From positions 4,320,001 to 4,384,000 of the forward strand of contig OY771506.1 in NCBI GenBank assembly GCA_963674705.1: DNA of 64,000 nucleotides, read 5' to 3'. The position numbers and the translations under genes were made by a program. The notes beneath the pieces are model-generated. The model was given only the letters and a program-made list of their open reading frames with translations, made no database searches and was not told the origin of the DNA. The DNA comes from Phycisphaeraceae bacterium (GTDB lineage Bacteria > Planctomycetota > Phycisphaerae > Phycisphaerales > Phycisphaeraceae). How positions within the stretch are numbered: the first letter of the stretch is position 1; every line of letters begins with the position of its first letter. Below, one piece after another: positions 33,084 to 53,213 of the stretch.

Positions 33084-33088
33084 TTTGG

Positions 33089-33211
33089 GAAAAGCAGGAA
33101 AGCAGAAAATGGTAAAAACAGAAAATCAGGCATTCGTATAAGTACACGTCCAGTAGCCGGACGGCCGGCTCGAATTTTCTGCTTTCCAAATTTCCTGCTT
33201 TTCTGCTTTTT
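33089..33211. repeat. AGCAGAAA/TTTCTGCT-unit inverted-repeat element between the two tRNAs (second copy at 52258-52379)
   Basis: AAAAGCAGGAAAGCAGAAAATGG... pairs with ...TTTCCTGCTTTTCTGCTTTT. Confidence 0.75.
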
Positions 33212-33217
33212 CAAGCA

Positions 33218-33470: not shown

Positions 33471-33610
33471 CCCCTTCGCTTCGCTCAGAGGGAGAGAAGC
33501 CATTAGCCATTAGCCATCAGCAACAAGCAATACCATCCCCACACCCTACACCCTACACCCTACACCCCACACCCCACACCCCACACCCCACACCCCACAC
33601 CCCACACCCC
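33471..33610 (-). repeat. degenerate copy of the ~85-bp element with ~10 TGTGGGG/TGTAGGG heptamers
   Basis: CCCTTCGCTTCGCTCAG..(CCATTAG)n..GCAATACCAT then CCCCACA/CCCTACA units. Confidence 0.85.
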
Positions 33611-33717
33611 AATTATATCGCAATAACCTCCCCCTCCCGGCCCCCTGCCATCCCCCGGTTTAAACCTCAAAATCTCACTTTTTTCAATTTTTTAAACCCA
33701 ATATTCACGCCAGCACC

Positions 33718-33745: not shown

Positions 33746-33962
33746 TTGGGTACGAGATTGCTTAGAATGTGATAGATTAATCCGCCGACCAACCATAGAA
33801 TTGAATGGTGGTTAATGCTGGTTTTCCGGATCCAGGCGGTTGGGCCGGACGGGGCAGGCAGTTCTTTCCCCGTCGAAAACGGGCCAACCCCGCACACCGC
33901 AGGGACGCACTCAGGCCCGGCTTCACGCCCCGCCAAGGCTAAACGAAACGAGGGAACAAAGC

Positions 33963-34850
33963 ATGCAACGCAAAATCTCCAAACCCAAACCCCACGGCTT
34001 CACGCTCATCGAATTGCTCGTGGTCATCTCCATCATCGCCCTGCTCGTCGGCATCCTCCTGCCGGCCCTCGGTGCGGCGAGGAAAGCGGCACGTTCATCG
34101 GTGTGCTTAAGTAACGAACGTCAGGTCGGCGTCGCGATAGGAGCTTATGCTTCGTCCAATAATGATCATATCCCTCTACTCCGTGGATTTGATATCCCGC
34201 TCTCAAGAGTCCCGGTTGGTGCGATTACCAACTACGGGGATGTTGATGCTCACTGGTACTGGACCAGCCGAATGGTGATTGATGGCTACGGCGCGGAACG
34301 GCAAATGTTCACCTGTCCATCATTCGATAGCGCTGAAGAAGCCACACTCGCGGACGGTACTCCCGTCACCATACGTGACGCCCCCCTGGATGACGCAGGC
34401 AATTATATCTGGCGTAACTCCGACTATGCCATCAATGTCGCAGCTTATGCCGCAAAACGTGCTGATCCTATTTTGATGGGTAATCAGGACAGGATTAAAA
34501 ATATGATGACATCGCTGCAAACCGCAGATATGTTGAATCCCAGTAATCACATCGGCGTGCTTGATTCATTCTTCATCGGCGCAGATCCGGAATCTCCCTT
34601 TGGATACAAAGCTAGCATCCCCCAACGTGGTGTTTTTGCACTGGCTGGTATCGTCACAACAATGCCTGGCGAACACCCGCACGCACGGCATGGTAGCAGC
34701 GCGATTAACATCCTCTGGGGTGACGGACACGCTTCAGCATTTACCGTCGAAGACAAGTATCGTCCCTACGACACACTCAATGGCTACAACACAGCCATGA
34801 CCCGACTCGATGATGAAAAAATCAATATGTGGGATACACGGACACGGTAA
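33963..34850 (+). CDS. prepilin-type N-methylation / H-X9-DG (DUF1559-like) protein 1
   Basis: [27 protein letters not shown]...[25 protein letters not shown]. Confidence 0.92.
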
Positions 34851-34881
34851 GTCGATCGCCCAATTTTCTGTTCTGCCACTC

Positions 34882-34961
34882 AAACACCGCCATACCCGGC
34901 GGTGTTTTTTTGCCCATATTCATGAGAATAATCTTGCGAATATCGCCAGTTGTTATATAAT
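34882..34961 (+). promoter_or_regulatory. terminator (34882-34911) plus promoter TTGCGA-16-TATAAT
   Basis: ACACCGCC/GGCGGTGT stem with T run; module repeated at 35988 and 37542. Confidence 0.75.
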
Positions 34962-35079
34962 TAAATTAGCTGCCCAAGACGTTGCCCCTGATTGGGTTTG
35001 AATCATGCCGTAGTCTTGATGTGGTCAACGAATTGCTGAAACGACCGAACTTCTCACAGGTAAGCCACAGGTAAACACC

Positions 35080-35943
35080 ATGCTTGATAACAACAACAAA
35101 ACATCAGGCTTCACACTCATCGAACTGCTGGTGGTCATCTCCATTATCGCTCTGCTCGTCGGCATCCTCTTGCCGGCGCTGGGTGCTGCACGTAAGGCTG
35201 CGCAGAACGTCCAATGCGCCAGCAATGAACGCCAGGTCGGCGTCGCCATCGCCGCCTACGCCACCGACAGCAACGACCTGGTCACCCCCTACCAGTCTTG
35301 GGACCGCAGCCACCCCATCCATCTGGAAGCAAATAAAAACCGCACCCAATGGACGGATACCGGGATGTTCATCGGCGACTATGTCTGGACCAGCATCATC
35401 GTCACCAAGGGGTATGGGGCCGAACGAGACATGTTCCGCTGCCCGTCATTCCCCGAGGCCGATGAAAACAGTGATGTCAGCATCCGCACCGCCGACCTCG
35501 ACGACCCCGGACAGCGAAACTGGTTCAACACGGATTACGGCATCAACGCCGCGTGCTACGGCATGCGGAAGGGCCAGGACCTGCCGGCCGGTACTCCCAA
35601 CAGGGACCGTGGCCAGCCCATCCGCCAGGCCGAGATGAGAAAGCCCTCTTCGCACATCGCCACGGTAGACGTGTTCGTCACTCAATACGACCCGATGAAT
35701 CCAATGTACACACCCGGCCCACAACGCGGCTACTTTGTCGTCACGGGAGTGAAACAGGGACCGAACGTGGGGATCAATCCCCACGCACGGCACTCAAGCT
35801 CCATCAACATCCTCTGGGGTGACGGCCACGTTGATCCCTACGCGATCAATGACATCTATAACCCCTACGATGAGATGGGCGAAAGAGATACCGACCCCAC
35901 TGTCGACGGCAAACCCAATCTCTGGAACACCATCGATTACTGA
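35080..35943 (+). CDS. prepilin-type N-methylation / H-X9-DG protein 2
   Basis: Same N-terminal motif; [13 protein letters not shown]. Confidence 0.92.
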
Positions 35944-35987
35944 TTTGCCCACACGGCCGGACCCAGTACATAAGCCCCGCTAACAAG

Positions 35988-36066
35988 ACACCGCCGCACC
36001 CGGCGGTGTTTTTTTCTTCCTGTTTTGCCAGAATGGACTTGTGATACGCCCCGACTGTTATATAAT
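35988..36066 (+). promoter_or_regulatory. terminator (35988-36015) plus promoter TTGTGA-16-TATAAT
   Basis: Near-identical hairpin and TGTTATATAAT box. Confidence 0.75.
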
Positions 36067-36197
36067 TAGCGCGATGATCTTATAGCTTGTGTTTCATGAC
36101 CGTCGTTCACGATGGCACGCAAGTAAATCACAGGGGGCCAGAGACTTCAGTTCGGCCGATTGCGGTCCAGTTCACGACACTACTTCGAGGGCCTGTC

Positions 36198-37085
36198 ATG
36201 TCATACAAAATCGCGAAAAGCAACGGCTTCACACTCATCGAACTGCTGGTGGTGATCTCCATCATCGCCTTGCTCGTCGGTATCCTCCTGCCGGCGCTCG
36301 GCGCGGCAAGGAAAGCGGCACGTTCATCCGTATGCCTGAGTAACGAACGGCAGATCGGGGTTGCCATCGGTGCCTATTCATCAACCAACAATGACTTTAT
36401 TCCGCTGTTCCGCGGCTTTAATATCCCATGGGAGAATGTGCCGGCTGCCTATATCCAAGGATATGGCAACACACCTGCCCATTGGTATTGGACCAGCCGA
36501 ATGGTGATTGATGGATACGGCGCTGAACGCCAGATGTATACCTGCCCGTCATTCGATAACGCCGAGGCGGCTACGAATGCTGCAGGTGACCCTGTAACCA
36601 TACGAGATGCACCGCTGGACGGCGATCATACCAACCCGGAATTCTACCTTTGGCGTAACTCAGATTACGCGATCAATGTATCTGCCTATGCGGCCAAACG
36701 AGGGGACCCGAATTACAATAGTTCAACGCTGAAGTCGAAAAATCTTTCTTTCAGTATTCAAACCGCTGACATGTTAAGGCCATCTGAACACATCGGTGTG
36801 TTAGATTCATTCTTCATCGCAGCCGATCCAAATTCGCCCTTTTACAACAGCAGCAAGAATATCCCCTATCGTGGAACCTTCGCGTTGGCTGGAATCGTCA
36901 CGACAGACCCCGGCGAACACCCGCACGCCCGTCATGGCAGCAGTGCCATCAACATCCTCTGGGGTGACGGCCACTGCAGCGCCTTTACCGTGGAAGACGA
37001 GTGGCGACCCTACGAAACCCTCGGCGACTGGGATACCGATCCGAAGGTCGACGGCATCCCCAACCGCTGGGATACACGCAACTGA
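36198..37085 (+). CDS. prepilin-type N-methylation / H-X9-DG protein 3 (closest to protein 1)
   Basis: Shares [50 protein letters not shown] with protein 1. Confidence 0.92.
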
Positions 37086-37291
37086 TATCACTGGCCAGCA
37101 CCTCCATAATCAGATGTTAGTCCGGGCCCGCGGGTTCTACATAAACAAGAAGGCAATTAGCCACAGATAAACACCGATAAACACGGATTAGAAAAAAAGC
37201 CTGTTTTCAATACATCGGATCAAGATGCTTGTTTTAAGCCTCTTGAACCATGATGAATCGGATGCGGCCCAATTATTCTTGTTTTCATACC

Positions 37292-37386
37292 CGTGGCGAA
37301 ATATGCTCCCAAATTCGCGTCCATTCGCATTCATTCGCGGCTAACCAACACGCCACAACCTTCGCGCTCTTAGCGCCTTCGCGGTT
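37292..37386 (-). repeat. ~95-bp inverted copy of the composite element at 44627-44720
   Basis: Reverse complement reads AACCGCGAAGGCGCTAAGAGCGCGAAGGTTGTGG.GTGTTGGTTAGCCGCGAATGAA.GC.AATGGACGCGAAT..GGGAGCATATTT. Confidence 0.9.
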
Positions 37387-37541
37387 CACTCCCGCCGGGC
37401 GTCCGTCTATAACCCGCAGGGCAAAGGCGGTTGCTACAGTAATTAGTGATGCAGGCCCGGGCCTGCGGGTTGTTCTTGAATCCGGCATTCACACAAACGT
37501 ATCAATAACTACCTGCGTTTTCTTGCTCCAATCACGCCCCG

Positions 37542-37621
37542 ACACTGCCATACACGGCGGTGTTTTTTTATCCACTTCTTACCCGAAATGGGGTTGTGTT
37601 CCCATGGCAAAGTTATAGAAT
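37542..37621 (+). promoter_or_regulatory. terminator (37542-37569) plus promoter TTGTGT-16-TAGAAT
   Basis: Third copy of the hairpin + GTTATA.AAT module. Confidence 0.7.
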
Positions 37622-37771
37622 TAATTCAGTGAGATTATGGCTTGTGTTCGCGTGCATGGGTTCCGATGGCACGCAAGTAAATCAAAAGGGATTCGGGTTT
37701 CAGTTGGGTCGTGTCAATAATCAGTTCGCTTAGTTGAATTCCCATCTAAGGCATCACTTCAAGGACCTGTC

Positions 37772-38629
37772 ATGTCAACCAGGACAGTCAAAACAAACGG
37801 TTTTACGCTTATCGAATTGCTGGTGGTCATCTCCATCATCGCCCTGCTCGTCGGCATCCTCCTGCCGGCGCTGAGCGCAGCACGCGAATCGGCCCGCACC
37901 TCGGTCTGCTTAAGCAACGAACGCCAGGTCGGCATCGCCATCATGTCGTATGCGACGGACAACAAGGACTTTGTCGTACGTAACTCGTACAGCAGCACCG
38001 TCGTCAAGAACTTCTGGGCCAGCAGCACCGGTGTTGAATGGTACTGGACCAGCACACTTGCCATTCAGGGATATGGCGCCGAACGAAAAATGTACAAGTG
38101 CCCGAGTTTCGATACGGCGGAAAATGTCAGCGACTACACCATCCTGGTCGCAGACCTGGATGACCCGGCTGATAGCAGATGGCGTGATACCGACTACGGC
38201 ATCAACTGGTACTCCCTCGCCGGCCGAAACGCGTATGGCGATACGGATGAAGAAAGGTACTTCGGCACAAGCCGCCTGGATTGGGCGGAAGACCCGACCG
38301 GCACCCTGCTGACCTGTGATTCATGGTACGAGCAATTCAAAGAAGGAACGGCTCTGCATGATACACACCAGCGCGGCTGCCCCGTTGTCGGCGGCATTCC
38401 TACGAATACCGGCGGCCCACACGGAAGGCACGCCAGCCAGAAGTGCAACATCCTTTGGGCTGACGGCCACGTCGACGGCATGAACTTCCCCAACCTGACG
38501 TATAGCGATCGCGTCGACGGACCTTGGGGCCCCAACCAACTGGGCATCTTCAGTTCCACAGTTAGAAAACGTGTCGAAGCAGGCACGCTCAACATCAATG
38601 ATTATCCCAACGCGTGGGACCTTTGGTGA
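37772..38629 (+). CDS. prepilin-type N-methylation / H-X9-DG protein 4
   Basis: Same N-terminus; [17 protein letters not shown]. Confidence 0.92.
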
Positions 38630-42742: not shown

Positions 42743-42788
42743 TTGAGGAAGGTTGTTCGTTAACAACAGGAAACTGAAAGCCACCCGC

Positions 42789-42872
42789 CCCTTCGCTTCA
42801 CTCAGGACCGGCGTTGGGATGCAAACATCAGCGATTAACGATTAGCCATTAGCAATACCATTCCCACACCCC
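42789..42872 (-). repeat. copy of the ~85-bp element with only 1-2 G-rich heptamers
   Basis: Reverse complement matches 2942-3027. Confidence 0.85.
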
Positions 42873-42889
42873 CTACCCGACCCACCACC

Positions 42890-43690
42890 TTGCCAACCAT
42901 CCACCCCACCGCTTTTGTCGATCCGCAAGCTCAACTGGCTGACGATGTGATCGTCGGGCCTTACAGCATCATCGAGGGGCGCGTGACGATCGGCGCGGGG
43001 TGTAAGCTGATCGCACACGTCTGCGTGAAAGGGCCGATCACGATCGGGCAGCGGAACCTGATCTATCCTTATGCCTGCCTGGGGTACGACCCGCAGGATC
43101 GGTCGTTCCATCCGGACACCGAGGGCGCGGGGACAGTGATCGGCAACGATAACTACATCCGTGAATCAGTCACGATCCACCGGGCGACAAAGAATCTGCC
43201 GACGCGGATTGGAGACCGAAACTACCTGATGGCCAACTCGCACATCGCGCACGACTGCGTGATCGGTAACGACTGCATGTTCGCCAACAGCGCGGTGGTT
43301 GCCGGACACGTGCAGGTGGGCGACAAAGCGATCCTGGCAGGCGGCGCGGGCGTGCAGCAGTTCTGCCGGATGGGTCGGCTGTCGATGCTGTCGGGCAACG
43401 AAGGGATCACCAAGGATTTGCCACCCTTCTGCATCGTCCATCACACCAAGCGCGTCGGCTCGCTGAACGTGATCGGGCTGCGTCGCAACGGTTACCGCGA
43501 AAGCATCAAGCATCTTCAGCAGGCGTTCGACCTGCTGTACAAGGCCGGGCTGACCACGCCGGCCGCGGCGGAACGCATCAACAAGGACCTGGGGCATGAC
43601 GCGTTGTGCGTCGAGTTCGCCGAGTTCATCCGCACAGCCGAGCGCGGCGTGACACAGTATGCGGGATCGGATGAGATGTATAGCATGTGA
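42890..43690 (+). CDS. lpxA: acyl-ACP--UDP-N-acetylglucosamine O-acyltransferase
   Basis: IHPTAFVD hexapeptide repeats, PQD, IRESVTIHRAT, HIAHDC, LNVIGLRR. Confidence 0.93.
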   Translation: MPTIHPTAFVDPQAQLADDVIVGPYSIIEGRVTIGAGCKLIAHVCVKGPITIGQRNLIYPYACLGYDPQDRSFHPDTEGAGTVIGNDNYIRESVTIHRATKNLPTRIGDRNYLMANSHIAHDCVIGNDCMFANSAVVAGHVQVGDKAILAGGAGVQQFCRMGRLSMLSGNEGITKDLPPFCIVHHTKRVGSLNVIGLRRNGYRESIKHLQQAFDLLYKAGLTTPAAAERINKDLGHDALCVEFAEFIRTAERGVTQYAGSDEMYSM

Positions 43691-43693
43691 TTG

Positions 43694-44958
43694 AACCGCG
43701 AAGTCGCGAAGAGCCGCGAAGGTTGGGAATTAGCCGGGTAAGATTCTTTTAGCCGCGAATGAATGCTAATGGACGCGAATTGAGAAAAGCATTTTAACCA
43801 CGGATGGACACGGATAAGATGGGGGAATCATGTCGTTTTATAATTGGGTGGATTTGAATACGGTCAGCGTTATTGTTGTAGTCGTTGCGCCGTCAATGCC
43901 GTGCTTGATTAAAATTCTTGTGGATCACTTGCAGACTACGCCGGATTGTGCGCCGTATGCTAAGGCTTAGCGTGTGGCTTGCTATAGCGGGATTGGGGTA
44001 TTCAGTCTGATATTGTTGGTTGTCAGCGTGGTTGTGGTGTTTGCAGTTGTTGCATTCTTGTGATGCATATCTGATGCTAAGGTGACGGAAGACGCGGCGA
44101 ACGGCGAGCAAGCTCGCCGGCTAAACGGGGGTGGACACTTCATTCTTATTTGCGTTGATTGGCGTTTATTTGCGGCTAAGTCTTTTTGGGGGCATGGCCG
44201 GATTTCCATTGACATGCACTGAATAGCTGTTTATCTTGATATGAACCCCCGATTTGGCGGAGTGCTCAGCTTCGTCTGTCCCTACGGGACACCGAGTAAG
44301 AATCGGGGATATCCGGTTGGATTTGTAACAACATGCATCAGATGGCCGTCAAATGTTGGCGTGTATTTTGATGACAGGGGCAGATATTGAACGGATGTAT
44401 AACGTGAGTTATCGTTATATACATTGATTCTGTTTTCAGTGAGTATCAGAATCTCCTTAGCAGCCGCAGGTGGACGTTGATGGACGCACATTGCTATACA
44501 TAAATGACGCGGTGAGAAAGCTCGCGTTTAAAGAGAGAAGTGATCGTGTGTTTTTATTCGCGTTGGTTGGCGTTCACTTGTGGCTGATTTTTATTTCGGG
44601 GTCAGTATGACAGAGTGTGGGGTTTAAACCGCGAAGGCGCTAAGAGCGCGAAGGTTGTGGTGTGTTGGTTAGCCGCGAATGAACGCTAATGGACGCGAAT
44701 CGGGGAGCATATTTAGCCATGGATGAACACGGATAAAGATAAACATTTCACCGCAGAGAGTGCGGAGGGCACAGAGTTAAATTGCTTGAATTGAAGTTTT
44801 TCCCGACTTCTCTGCGATCTCTGCGACCTCTGCGGTGAAGTCTGGTTTGGTGGAGATCCTAAGTCGTAAGGTGATCGGTGATCGGCGATCTGAGATCGCC
44901 TGCTAAACGGGGGAATACTTCATTCTTATTCGCGTTGATTGGCGTTTATTTGCGGCTG
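43694..44958 (+). repeat. two tandem composite repeat cassettes (43694-44178 and 44627-44958) with shared borders
   Basis: Both start AACCGCGAAG..GCGAAGGTTG / TAGCCGCGAATGAA.GCTAATGGACGCGAAT / CA.GGATG.ACACGGATAA and end GCTAAACGGGG..ACTTCATTCTTATT.GCGTTGATTGGCGTTTATTTGCGGCT. Confidence 0.88.
43830..44063 (+). pseudogene. small two-TM membrane protein ORF interrupted by an in-frame TAG (43968-43970)
   Basis: GGGGGA RBS; MSFYNWVDLNTVSVIVVVVAP...YAKA*RVACYSGIGVFSLILLVVSVVVVFAVVAFL. Confidence 0.4.
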
Positions 44959-47502
44959 ATGATTTTGCCTTAATGTCCACGACTCGATCGTGCCATCAAC
45001 GTTAACCCGGACCTGGGTCATGCCGTGTTTGGCGGTGATCAGGCGGGTGAGGGGGATGTCTTTGATGATGTCGGGCCAGGCGTCCTGGTAGAGGCGGGTT
45101 CGGCCGGAGGATTGCAGAACGATAGATGGGTTGACGGCGTGAAGCCAGGCGGGGCTGGCGTCGACGATGCTGCCGTGGTGAGGCAGGTCGGTGATGTCGG
45201 CGTTAAGGTTTTCAAGTTGCATGAGGTTGGTCATGGCTTCATCCGCGATGTCGCCGTTGAGGAGGATGCGGCGGCCGGCGGTTTGGATGGCGAGGAGGAT
45301 GGAGGTGTCGTTCGTGCGTTTGGGGTTGAAGTCTTCGGGGGGCCAGAGGATTTGCAGGTTCGTCTTGTTTGAATCGTTCAGCGATTCGGTCCAGTCGCGG
45401 CAGACGGTTTTGGGAAATAGGCCGCGATCGGTCAGGCCGTCGATGAGGAAGGATGTGGCGGTGCCGGGGTGGGCTTTGGCTTCTTCGAGCAGTTGCGGCG
45501 GGATGAAGACGCGGCCGATGTTGATGTTATCCGCGAGGTCGAGTGCGCCGCCGTAGTGGTCCATGTCTGCGTGTGAGAGGATGAGCGTGTCGATGCGCGA
45601 GACGCCCATCTGTTTGAGCGCGGGGAGGATGCTGGCTTGTGCGATGTCGAAGTATTGCTGCGAGCCACAGTCGAACATGATGGTGTGGTCGGGTAATTGC
45701 ACGAGATAGCACGAGCCGTCCCCGACGGCGAACATGGTCAGTATTGCGGCGGGCGGCTGGGGTTGTGGTTTACCGAGCCAGGAGTTGCGAGGGGTGAATT
45801 GTGTCAGGCCTGTCCATGCGATGATGATGAGGCAAGCGGCGGCGAGCGTTTTTCGGCGCTGTTTGAACGCGCCGGCGAAGACGGCGAGGATCAGCGTGGC
45901 CAGCGCGAAGGTCCATGTGATACTCGGTTGCCAGTTGAGGAAGATGGCAGCGGCGGGCCAGTCGGCGGCGTGGTCGACGAGGTTGCGCAGCGTATCGCCT
46001 AACCAGTCGAGTGGGCCGGCGAGTATGAGGCCGGCGCTTGGGAGGATGATGCCGATCAGGATCTTTAAGTAGCCGACACCAAGCACGGCGGTGATGACGG
46101 GTAAGGCCATGATCGATAGCAACACGGCCAGCGGGTTGACCATCTGGAAGTGGAACGCGACCAGCGGCATCACAACGGCAAACGCAACGATGGACACGGC
46201 CAGGTAATCGACACACCATCGGCCGATCACCCAACTGATGCTCAGGTGCCCCGGTAAGACATCCGGCTTGGGCCAGAGCCATTCGGAGACGCTCGGGACG
46301 AAGAGGATGAGCCCGGCGACGGCGGCGAAACTGAGCTGGAAGCCGGGCGAGAACAGGTCCATCGGCCGCCAGAGCAGGACGACCGCTGCGGCGAAGGCGA
46401 GGGCTTGTATGGGGCGGACCTGCCGGCCAGTTGCATAAGCGGCGCAGAAGACACCGGCCATGATCGCGGAGCGCACGATCGGGACGCGCAGCGGAACGGC
46501 CATCAGGTAGAGCGCGAGGACAACGAGCACGATCATCGCGACGCGCGGCGGGTGCGGAACGAACCAGCGTGTGATCAGCGTGACGATGCCCAGCAATATC
46601 GCCAAATGAGCACCAGAAATAGACAGCATGTGAGCGAGCCCTACTTGCCTGAAAGCAACGCGTACCTCGCTGGAAGAACTGTCTTTTCGACCGAGCAGCA
46701 TGGTTTCAAGCAGGCCGAGGGTTGGCGTGTCGTCGTCCATGCCGATGCGCAGGGAATGCAGTGCACGGTCTGCGCAGAACTGGCGGATGCTGCGTTGAGC
46801 GGTGCCGAGGCTTGGTGATGTATCGGGCAACGGTTTCCAGTTACCACGGCTGCGCAGGGTGATGCGGCCGACGATGCCGCGTTCAGCCAGATAGGCACGG
46901 TAATCAAATTCACCGAGGTTTTGCGGGCCGGCGATCGCGCTGAGCCAGCCGGTGGCTTCGATGTGTTGGCCGGGCGTGAGTTGGTCATCGGCCTGGTCGA
47001 CGCGCATCAGCAGGTCGCCTAGGGCTTGGGTCCATGCGCCATCGACTTCGATCCGGTTGACGCGCAGGACGATGCGCGTGCTTGGGGCTTCGTAGCTGAA
47101 GGGAGCGAACGCGCCGCGTTTTGGCGAGCCGGAAACCGGCGGCTCGATGAGTTCACCCTGCACGCGCGCCAGTTGCGAGGTTTCTCCGATGTAGGCGGTG
47201 AGGTTGTGATCGAACATGTAGTCACTTCGCAGGATCAGCCAAGCTGCGGCCAGACACAACAGGCAGAGCGTCGCCCAGGTTTGCACGCCGCGCTCGCTTC
47301 TGCGTCCGAGCATCCACGCAACACCGATCGCTGCAACGCATGACGCGAGCAACCATACCCAAAAGAAACTGAACAGATGCCCGAACACGATGCCCGCCAT
47401 CAGCACGGCCGTAATAGCAGTCATCGGCCCGCGCAGGGCCTCCAGCGCCCCGGGCTCGGTTGATCGGCTTGCCCCAGCGGATGTGTCTTGCAGATCAGGC
47501 AC
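44926..47502 (-). CDS. comEC: DNA internalization competence protein ComEC/Rec2
   Basis: N.GEFDY, GLAHMLSISGAH, GFQLSF, VGDG, SHADMDHYGG, PHHGS. Confidence 0.94.
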   Translation of the reverse strand: MPDLQDTSAGASRSTEPGALEALRGPMTAITAVLMAGIVFGHLFSFFWVWLLASCVAAIGVAWMLGRRSERGVQTWATLCLLCLAAAWLILRSDYMFDHNLTAYIGETSQLARVQGELIEPPVSGSPKRGAFAPFSYEAPSTRIVLRVNRIEVDGAWTQALGDLLMRVDQADDQLTPGQHIEATGWLSAIAGPQNLGEFDYRAYLAERGIVGRITLRSRGNWKPLPDTSPSLGTAQRSIRQFCADRALHSLRIGMDDDTPTLGLLETMLLGRKDSSSSEVRVAFRQVGLAHMLSISGAHLAILLGIVTLITRWFVPHPPRVAMIVLVVLALYLMAVPLRVPIVRSAIMAGVFCAAYATGRQVRPIQALAFAAAVVLLWRPMDLFSPGFQLSFAAVAGLILFVPSVSEWLWPKPDVLPGHLSISWVIGRWCVDYLAVSIVAFAVVMPLVAFHFQMVNPLAVLLSIMALPVITAVLGVGYLKILIGIILPSAGLILAGPLDWLGDTLRNLVDHAADWPAAAIFLNWQPSITWTFALATLILAVFAGAFKQRRKTLAAACLIIIAWTGLTQFTPRNSWLGKPQPQPPAAILTMFAVGDGSCYLVQLPDHTIMFDCGSQQYFDIAQASILPALKQMGVSRIDTLILSHADMDHYGGALDLADNINIGRVFIPPQLLEEAKAHPGTATSFLIDGLTDRGLFPKTVCRDWTESLNDSNKTNLQILWPPEDFNPKRTNDTSILLAIQTAGRRILLNGDIADEAMTNLMQLENLNADITDLPHHGSIVDASPAWLHAVNPSIVLQSSGRTRLYQDAWPDIIKDIPLTRLITAKHGMTQVRVNVDGTIESWTLRQNHQPQINANQRE

Positions 47503-52222: not shown

Positions 52223-52257
52223 GATTGGATTGTAGCTGTGAGGGGGAGGGAAGACAA

Positions 52258-52379
52258 AAAAGCAGAAAATGGTAAAAGCAGGAAAGCAAAAAATCCGATC
52301 CAGCCGTCCGGCAACCTGACGCGATCCGGAGCGATTGCTCTATTTCCTGCTTTTCTGCTTTTCACATTTTCTGCTTTTC
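52258..52379. repeat. AGCAGAAA/TTTCTGCT inverted-repeat element overlapping the stop codon of the upstream gene
   Basis: AAAAGCAGAAAATGGTAAAAGCAGGAAAGC.. pairs with ..CTGCTTTTCTGCTTTTCACATTTTCTGCTTTT. Confidence 0.8.
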
Positions 52380-53213
52380 CAACACCCCCACCTGCCTCTT
52401 CGCGACCTTCAACGTCCTCCACCACAACCAAGTCAGTACAACCGCGAACACCAGGGCGTAAATGATCGGGAGGATGAAGGAGAATGAGCCACCTGGGACG
52501 ATGTTCAGGCGAACGAGCAGGAAGCCGGCGAAGCTGAACAAGGCCAAGCCGACTGCGGTGGCGATCCAGTATTGGGTCAGTTTCTTCCAGTCGCTTGATA
52601 ATGCTTCATCCGGGACGCGCTGGGCGAGCAGTTGCAGGTAGCGCCAGGTGGAAAGCAGGCCCAGGACGTAGACGGCATGGGCGGTGAGGAACAGGACATC
52701 GAACATGGGAAACTCGCTGTTGCCTCCACCGAAGGCGGATCGCCATCGCATGTTCCAGTTGCCGGCCAGGCGCTGGTCAGAATACGCGACATAGAACAGA
52801 GCGCCGAAGGTCATGATCGAAAGTACGATCGCGCCGGCGAGTGAGGTCCAGCGTGCAGCCATGCGGTAGCTGCGATCAAACGAAGGCTCGACGCGCTTGG
52901 GCTGGGCGGCGGTCAACAGCCAGATACCGACCCAGGAAATGACGACACCGAAGTAGACCACCGGGAAGGCGAAAAGAACCGAGTATCGCAGCAGCTTGGC
53001 CCCCCACTTCAAACGCTTGAGCCAGTCGGCCGGCGCGGTCGCGAGGCGATCCCCACGGGCGGAGATCAATACGGACATGCCACATTCAGGGCATGACGCA
53101 TCAAGCGCAAGCGTGCGGAGGTTGTAACCGCATTCAGCGCAGGGCAGGTCTTCGTTGACACGGTCGATGTCTACAGCAGCAGGTTCGATCATGGAAGATG
53201 GAGTAGAAGACAT
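52362..53213 (-). CDS. zinc-ribbon membrane protein
   Basis: CAECGYNLRTL....CPECG followed by ~5 TM helices. Confidence 0.8.
   Translation of the reverse strand: MSSTPSSMIEPAAVDIDRVNEDLPCAECGYNLRTLALDASCPECGMSVLISARGDRLATAPADWLKRLKWGAKLLRYSVLFAFPVVYFGVVISWVGIWLLTAAQPKRVEPSFDRSYRMAARWTSLAGAIVLSIMTFGALFYVAYSDQRLAGNWNMRWRSAFGGGNSEFPMFDVLFLTAHAVYVLGLLSTWRYLQLLAQRVPDEALSSDWKKLTQYWIATAVGLALFSFAGFLLVRLNIVPGGSFSFILPIIYALVFAVVLTWLWWRTLKVAKRQVGVLEKQKM

Follow-up and report, generated by a model that had tools for sequence, protein, structure and literature searches.

REPINs and their RAYT genes are described, in the sections of PMC3116915 and PMC6006769 cited here, as gene-less inverted extragenic doublets that occur in many copies and outnumber singlets, with an enzyme gene that is low in copy number and has these repeats on its flanks, and with presence or absence between close relatives. 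The repeat units that fill the lpxA-comEC junction of the genome studied here (G000) share these features, and one of their components, hairpin D, is a REP-type repeat that also lies beside a Y1 gene. They differ in that their main arms are tandem 10-nt words, whereas REPINs are, in the same sections, short palindromes with a GTAG or GTGG foot, and in that the associated gene encodes a PD-(D/E)XK protein instead of an HUH/Y1 transposase. Moreover, these associated genes, of the GxxExxY family, are multi-copy and mixed across phyla, several arm families nest in a fixed order, and of these repeats only hairpin D, not the B or C arms, was seen to flank a Y1 gene. In the TIRtron/TIRYT system an enzyme gene likewise lies between long inverted repeats that occur as a dispersed family as well, but the enzyme is a Y1 transposase, and the cited part of PMC3733652 mentions neither periodic 10-nt arms nor GxxExxY proteins.

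Integron attC sites, as presented in the cited part of PMC5027507, resemble this locus in their tandem units, variable cargo and one-strand G-T excess. Unlike them, the locus has no R boxes, no integrase above cut-off, cargo that lies in the loop and no family-wide strand bias. A long stem with a small gene in its loop is also found in the intervening sequences of 23S rRNA that carry four-helix-bundle (IVP) genes. Such genes (PF05635) also have tandem-repeat arms in G000, but the present locus lies between convergent protein genes, outside rRNA, and pairing in the arm family is no better than between shuffled arms and lacks a sense-strand bias. The GxxExxY (PDDEXK_3) family itself is characterized, in the cited part of PMC3424549, as being of unknown function and multiply transferred; set beside it, the units described here are gene-less derivatives. 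In the main texts of mostly open-access papers, no description of arms around GxxExxY genes was found. To what is known of these systems the locus adds a multi-set test against one-strand folding, a fixed nesting order, a group of B-armed proteins and a single site seen in several states.

Structure of the lpxA-comEC junction

The gap between the lpxA-family gene and comEC, which are convergent, is filled by repeat units (Table 1; positions are those of the window, the whole 64,000-nt stretch analysed). The initial annotation had described two tandem units with a tripartite left border, a common right border and a nested hairpin at 44747-44839. All of these are present, although a third, decayed B-D-B' unit had been overlooked. 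The pairing counts of the initial annotation were reproduced exactly, namely 24 Watson-Crick pairs, 6 G-T wobbles and 1 mismatch for arms 43750-43780/44148-44178, and 25, 5 and 1 for arms 44670-44700/44928-44958. In units 1 and 2 the order is A, B, truncated C, interior, hairpin D and B'. The B and C arms consist of tandem 10-nt words, while hairpin D, a separate REP-type element contained in the right border, is a palindrome with a GCTAAACG tail. Arm A stands without its inverted partner in unit 1; complete A...a pairs are present at other sites, and at the same junction in G002. Units 1 and 2 are gene-less, nested stacks of inverted repeat arms. The nested hairpin has 4 G-T and 3 A-C positions in an ungapped 44-nt comparison.

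Table 1. Features of the lpxA-comEC junction and its neighbours
Feature	Position	Strand	Remarks
lpxA-family acyltransferase gene	42890..43690	+	NF003657 and TIGR01852 above cut-off; left neighbour, outside the element
Unit 1 arm A, GCGAAG-type repeat, outermost	43694..43721	+	inverted partner missing here
Unit 1 left arm B, three 10-nt words	43750..43780	+	same arm brackets GxxExxY genes in L180, L069, L132 and L136
Unit 1 truncated arm C, two 10-nt words	43797..43817	+	G004 alignment breaks just 3' of arm C
Unit 1 interior, RBS-like site and broken ORF	43821..44063	+	
Unit 1 hairpin D with GCTAAACG tail, REP-type repeat	44103..44130	+	
Unit 1 right arm B'	44148..44178	-	
Single-copy spacer, sigma-70-like site (TTGACA-17-TATCTT), then predicted branched hairpin	44209..44311	+	
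Third, decayed unit	44461..44586	+	B-like arm 44461-44491, D remnant 44506-44535, B'-like arm 44556-44586
Unit 2 arm A	44627..44653	+	
Unit 2 left arm B	44670..44700	+	
Unit 2 truncated arm C	44716..44736	+	
Unit 2 interior, gene-less E-arm pair, 8/9-nt CAGAG words	44747..44839	.	E is the arm type of the second GxxExxY clade; 34 genome matches
Unit 2 hairpin D with tail	44884..44912	+	
Unit 2 right arm B'	44928..44958	-	
comEC/rec2 gene	44926..47502	-	TIGR00361 above cut-off; right neighbour, convergent, outside the element

The interior of unit 1 had been read as a small RBS-led membrane ORF. The purine-rich RBS-like site and the hydrophobic stretch stand, but the frame does not: 46 codons are followed by an in-frame TAG (43968-43970) and then by 30 hydrophobic codons, so that a decayed membrane-protein gene is likely. 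A contig from a second sample was identical over 43923-44391, i.e. across the TAG. No homologue of this ORF reached E<=0.1 among 214 candidates of 42-135 residues, an Atlas search gave no usable match, and comparison with the 10 other genomes of the genus returned only 23-nt chance matches, in two of them.

The last codons of comEC pass through arm B' of unit 2 (44926-44958), so this arm has become coding sequence. Elsewhere in the window, 37143-37393 is a further nested B/C arm unit, of which 37291-37393 is 90% complementary to 44620-44722.

The arm family and its GxxExxY genes

A profile seeded with arm B detected 236 copies in this genome at a score of at least 20, and none at that score on one strand of a block-shuffled genome. 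As the initial annotation had presumed, the arms are mostly paired: 174 of the 236 sit in 87 facing pairs, against 2 back-to-back neighbours. The median loop is 45 nt, and 74 of the 87 loops measure at most 130 nt, in keeping with MITE- or IS-derived elements, which have terminal inverted repeats without coding capacity. Two of the seven loops longer than 250 nt hold GxxExxY genes. In other genomes, the B pattern was found at no fewer than 122 loci in several phyla, including Planctomycetota, Acidobacteriota and Gammaproteobacteria.

The left border of the units is not unique to this locus. Across the genome, neighbouring arms nest in a set order. A enclosed B in 11 cases and C in 8, B enclosed C in 6 and C enclosed F in 14, none of them reversed, while E enclosed C in 10 cases and C enclosed E in 3. 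The fixed order was also seen at G004 loci; in G012 an A-like arm is located inside C arms, so the order may be lineage-specific. Loops that are not themselves repeats recur at distant sites, one with 93% identity over 106 nt and others as a four-member family at 73-86%, which indicates that whole units are copied. Columns 28 and 22 of the AACAGGG subfamily each differ between partners in 21 of 24 pairs, where 12.2 and 14.4, respectively, would be expected, which hints at built-in asymmetry or at avoidance of perfect palindromes.

The suggestion that GxxExxY genes would be found among the enclosed cargo was confirmed for this arm family. The proteins that B, C and E arms enclose belong to TIGR04256/PF13366. 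None is encoded in the window; the three PF13366 matches of this genome, two intact and one with an internal stop, are all armed. B arms bracket GxxExxY genes on both sides in L180 and L069 and on the right side in L132 and L136; within the G000/G004 pair a B-armed gene was found in G004 only. At L180, where G004 has this gene, G000 has a four-helix-bundle cassette, and at L227 G004 has a GxxExxY gene between C arms where G000 has nested arms. Only 3 of the 122 B-arm loci elsewhere have a GxxExxY gene within the fetched flanks.

On a wider scale, inverted arms flank 60 of 76 clade 1 genes (4 of 80 having been dropped for short flanks) and 65 of 80 clade 2 genes, and shuffled flanks never reached the score threshold. 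By motif count, 10-nt words accompany 43/76 genes of clade 1 and 0/80 of clade 2, whereas 8/9-nt words accompany 51/80 of clade 2 and 1/76 of clade 1. In a quick tree of 106 proteins, with arm labels taken from motif counts and 13 rows unlabelled, the three B-armed proteins, from three phyla, group together (SH-aLRT 88; 0/500 shuffles), as do 19 of 20 E-armed proteins (support 98). Arm type therefore follows the GxxExxY protein clade across phyla. Among 61 related genomes, whose kinship makes them non-independent, at least 8 arm matches occurred in 19 of 38 with a GxxExxY gene and in 0 of 23 without; outside the genus the figures were 8 of 27 and 0 of 23 (p=0.005).

In 68 GxxExxY sequences (two stop-containing rows having been dropped), D67, E77, K79, Q91 and Y95 are invariant. 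The structure model (pLDDT 95) has a PD-(D/E)XK fold and matches BpuSI (Z 8.7, rmsd 2.2, 91 aligned), Cas4 SSO0001 (Z 8.5, rmsd 2.9, 99 aligned) and Hjc (Z 7.0, rmsd 3.2, 85 aligned); with scores tied at Z 7-9, no closest family is singled out. Sequence searches of the PDB gave no credible match, and an Atlas search that excluded PF13366 clusters gave no usable one. Four-helix-bundle genes, which have no known catalytic role, carry arms of the same design, so that the nuclease may not be the arm mover. Tandem 7-/8-nt arrays of the types that bracket four-helix-bundle genes are also present in the window, where they are gene-free (2782-2951, 33088-33214, 33487-33612, 42771-42909 and 52248-52390).

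Junction states among relatives and the movement of units

Filled and empty states, which the initial annotation had proposed to compare, exist at the lpxA-comEC site, and so do swapped ones. The junction is visible in eight of ten genus members. It is empty in G009, holds one B pair in G007 and has the arrangement A-B...B'-A' in G002, while in four of eight relatives it appears, by eye, to be occupied by short orphan reading frames and to contain almost no arm sequence or none. In G003 another arm type lies 3' of lpxA on a contig that stops before comEC. The sequence 3' of lpxA in G010 and G008 (L023, L024) carries an apparently related orphan frame and is arm-free in its first 500 nt.

The closest comparison is with G004 (median identity nearby 93%), which has each of the three units. 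In unit 1 of G004 the borders are the same, but nested palindromes replace the ORF; the alignment breaks just after C and resumes at D. On a single contig from run X4, with 85% likeness, comEC is followed by B', D, 359 other letters and the C-B left border, which is likely a third interior for unit 2. Because interiors differ between the same arms in close relatives, the units are likely non-autonomous mobile elements. Beyond this junction, 70 of 80 G004 arm clusters could be mapped to G000; 41 were the same, 17 had changed, 11 lacked detected arms and 1 was unalignable. Another 40 pairs from G000 included 20 unchanged ones and 8 that differed, while the other 12 could not be mapped. The filled/empty sites that were inspected showed no clean target duplication; the near-clean site L188 has an imperfect 6-nt repeat, and the others are replacements.

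Taken together, these features suggest that the units are a non-autonomous, REPIN-like composite whose arms are candidate DNA sites for GxxExxY proteins acting in trans: the arms are members of the family found around GxxExxY genes, their words match protein clades, the units recur and their interiors are swapped. The explanation we favour, with the chances for and against it about balanced in our judgement, is that arm-bounded units are copied by GxxExxY nucleases that read the 10-nt words and that interiors are exchanged by recombination at the arms. The spacing of the words is about one helical turn. Nucleases encoded elsewhere would bind the words as double-stranded or cruciform DNA, their cuts would start the copying of arm-bounded units between gene junctions, and interiors would probably be exchanged by recombination at the arms. 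A wider reading, tentative and somewhat doubtful, would make the GxxExxY proteins the enzymes of an undescribed class of mobile elements: a bare restriction-fold nuclease with helically phased 10-bp words, whose gene-less derivatives nest in the order A>B>C>F (in this genus), swap interiors at the inner arm ends, and capture and shuffle small foreign genes at junctions across many phyla, the present locus being a three-unit array. Should the protein indeed recognise its arms, a direct test with clade-matched B, C and E words would become available for a nuclease family that is widespread but of unknown function, and the REPIN/RAYT design would be extended to a different enzyme class. The fixed nesting and the inner-arm swaps mark where cutting or exchange should be sought.

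Several points weigh against nuclease-driven copying, among them the lack of a clean target duplication at the inspected sites, the fact that no B-armed GxxExxY gene turned up in G000, the similar arms of four-helix-bundle genes, the small share of B-arm loci with a GxxExxY gene nearby and the apparently arm-poor junctions of four relatives. Co-variation of genes and arms is also expected from physical linkage, and armed and armless junctions changed equally often between G000 and G004 (18/64 with B/C arms against 43/157 without, p=1, the armless set being biased in that regions were chosen around arms and still include other repeat families). The equal rates speak instead for a neutral landing place, at which the arms would be debris of several element families. 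Ordinary homologous recombination between strains, with lpxA/comEC or the 30-nt arms as anchors, would then exchange the interiors, and no dedicated capture machine would be at work. The same reading would accommodate the G000/G004 mosaic of tracts with 85-100% identity, the swaps that replace the entire gap and reach into gene ends, of which there are several, the apparently arm-less orphan frames of some relatives and the broken cargo ORF. It leaves unexplained the 236 copies, the loop repeats at distant sites, the fixed nesting order and the conservation of arm words across phyla, and we consider it rather unlikely. Lower identity at the gene ends beside changed junctions was found at armless (p=0.002) and not at armed ones (p=0.26). 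Over the window as a whole (L175, L176), identity to G004 varies in a mosaic fashion, from about 65% to 100% between tracts several hundred bases long, which suggests ongoing recombination between the two species.

Strand bias, hairpin D and recombinases

The G-T excess that had drawn attention to the locus is real. Counting shared positions once and including the third unit, there are 13 G-T against 1 A-C (binomial p=0.002, a post hoc value, the locus having been chosen for this very feature). Four wobbles and the mismatch occupy identical positions in units 1 and 2, so that the 11 wobbles of these two units amount to 7 independent events and the units are not independent. The arms of the third unit contribute 8 G-T, 1 A-C, 2 other mismatches and one compensated pair.

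The step from this excess to selection for folding on the + strand did not hold for the family, as strand bias is absent in five sets, the outcome that the initial annotation itself had named as speaking against it. On the sense strand of 60 pairs between co-directional genes of this genome (as defined by rough in-house gene calls), 82 G-U stood against 84 A-C. Within-pair agreement of wobbles was 181 against 177.8 expected for all 87 pairs of this genome, 99 against 105.6 for 54 pairs from the 122 loci (65 of which have no pair, while 3 pairs come from a close relative), and 58 against 64.8 for 40 pairs from four other genera. Gene-oriented arms of GxxExxY genes gave G-T:A-C ratios of 55:53 with 100 other mismatches in clade 1 (60 armed genes) and 73:96 with 173 in clade 2 (65/80 genes). 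True partners were no better matched than shuffled arms, and in two of the three subfamilies they were matched less well (144 vs 125, 132 vs 136 and 96 vs 79 mismatches). An apparent one-strand purity of the B subfamily (p=0.002 against a coin-flip null, 0.033 without the focal pairs) vanished on random re-pairing of arms (0.827 vs 0.815, p=0.34), and among random combinations with at least 4 transitions 232 of 718 were one-sided. One-strand bias is thus local and not a property of the family.

Wobble direction and the G+T share of the unpaired flanks and loops are correlated (rho 0.39, n=82; 0.36 when the focal pairs are left out), and the unpaired linkers at the locus are 57-100% G+T. The local excess most likely reflects the shared descent of the units together with local G+T drift of the + strand. 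Replication skew was rejected as its cause: the locus is on the replichore where the + strand is C/A-rich, so the skew runs opposite to the local bias, and leading-strand counts are 111 G-T against 133 A-C. The orientation of hairpin D was also considered; the sequence flanking D is slightly enriched in G+T on the strand of D (means of 0.54 and 0.56), a weak trend contradicted by the B-D-B' unit at G000:5090298, which has four A-C and no G-T on that strand. Intergenic G+T fraction in G000:C1 has an SD of about 0.055 in all gene orientations, above the sampling expectation for the lengths. Where intergenic DNA is locally skewed in this way, an excess of G-T in one or two stems is only weakly indicative of folding on one strand.

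These counts bear on the proposal that the stems act as + strand RNA, made by read-through from lpxA or transcribed as a small RNA from the promoter-like sequence at 44209-44237, and processed in an RNase III-like manner or serving to stabilise or end transcripts. The 13:1 count, the compensated pair of the third unit and the opposite sense of replication skew agree with it, as does predicted folding, which is stronger on the + strand (z -5.2, 44243-44600) than on the - strand (z -1.4, 44200-44600). The spacer 44209..44311, found in G000 and G004 only (2/121 genomes), is 99% identical between them. This near-identity was set aside as evidence of exceptional conservation, as other 300-nt windows nearby reach 99-100% in the same genome pair. 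Furthermore, one promoter-like site of this kind was found where 1.7 are expected by chance, the stem of unit 2 in G004 has an A-C mismatch, no Rfam family scored above cut-off at the locus (one chance hairpin match lay below it), and neither the family, without sense-strand bias, nor the G+T-rich linkers suit RNA-level selection. We regard this proposal as clearly unlikely for the arms, although the spacer with the decayed third unit (44200-44590) is a possible small RNA. A diverged copy of the spacer in run X10 has two substitutions, both of which keep predicted pairs.

Hairpin D represents a separate family of about 50 copies, which flanks a Y1/RAYT-like gene at G000:1440796-1441371. All three units have it directly interior to their right arm, and so do the B-D-B' unit at G000:5090298 and, in another genus, a C-armed unit (L428). 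With this position, its Y1 association and its mildly G+T-rich flanks, the composite could be a REPIN moved by a RAYT-like Y1 transposase that recognises D, with the periodic arms as passengers. Against this, the D tail motif occurs in only 3 of 87 arm pairs, two of which are units 1 and 2; D is single and does not form an inverted doublet around the unit; and the wobbles at G000:5090298 run the other way. Movement by the D-associated transposase is accordingly distinctly improbable. No B or C arm was seen in the inspected flanks of the 14 Y1 matches of this genome. These 14 PF01797 matches, all in G000:C1, are divergent Y1 transposase-like genes, several with hairpin families of their own.

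An integron-type cassette array with attC-like single-stranded sites, suggested by three tandem units in one orientation, interiors that vary between strains and a one-strand G-T excess such as the cited part of PMC5027507 reports for attC bottom strands, is highly improbable and largely refuted: RYYYAAC is absent from 43691-44960, neither of two GTTRRRY matches is at an arm end, none of 7 TIGR02249 integrase matches in the 96.6% complete genome is above cut-off, the cargo lies within the stem loop and not beside a short site, and the family has no strand bias. The statement that the window encodes no recombinase was borne out. Elsewhere in the window, 33918-38629 contains four tandem prepilin-type genes with near-identical N-terminal segments.
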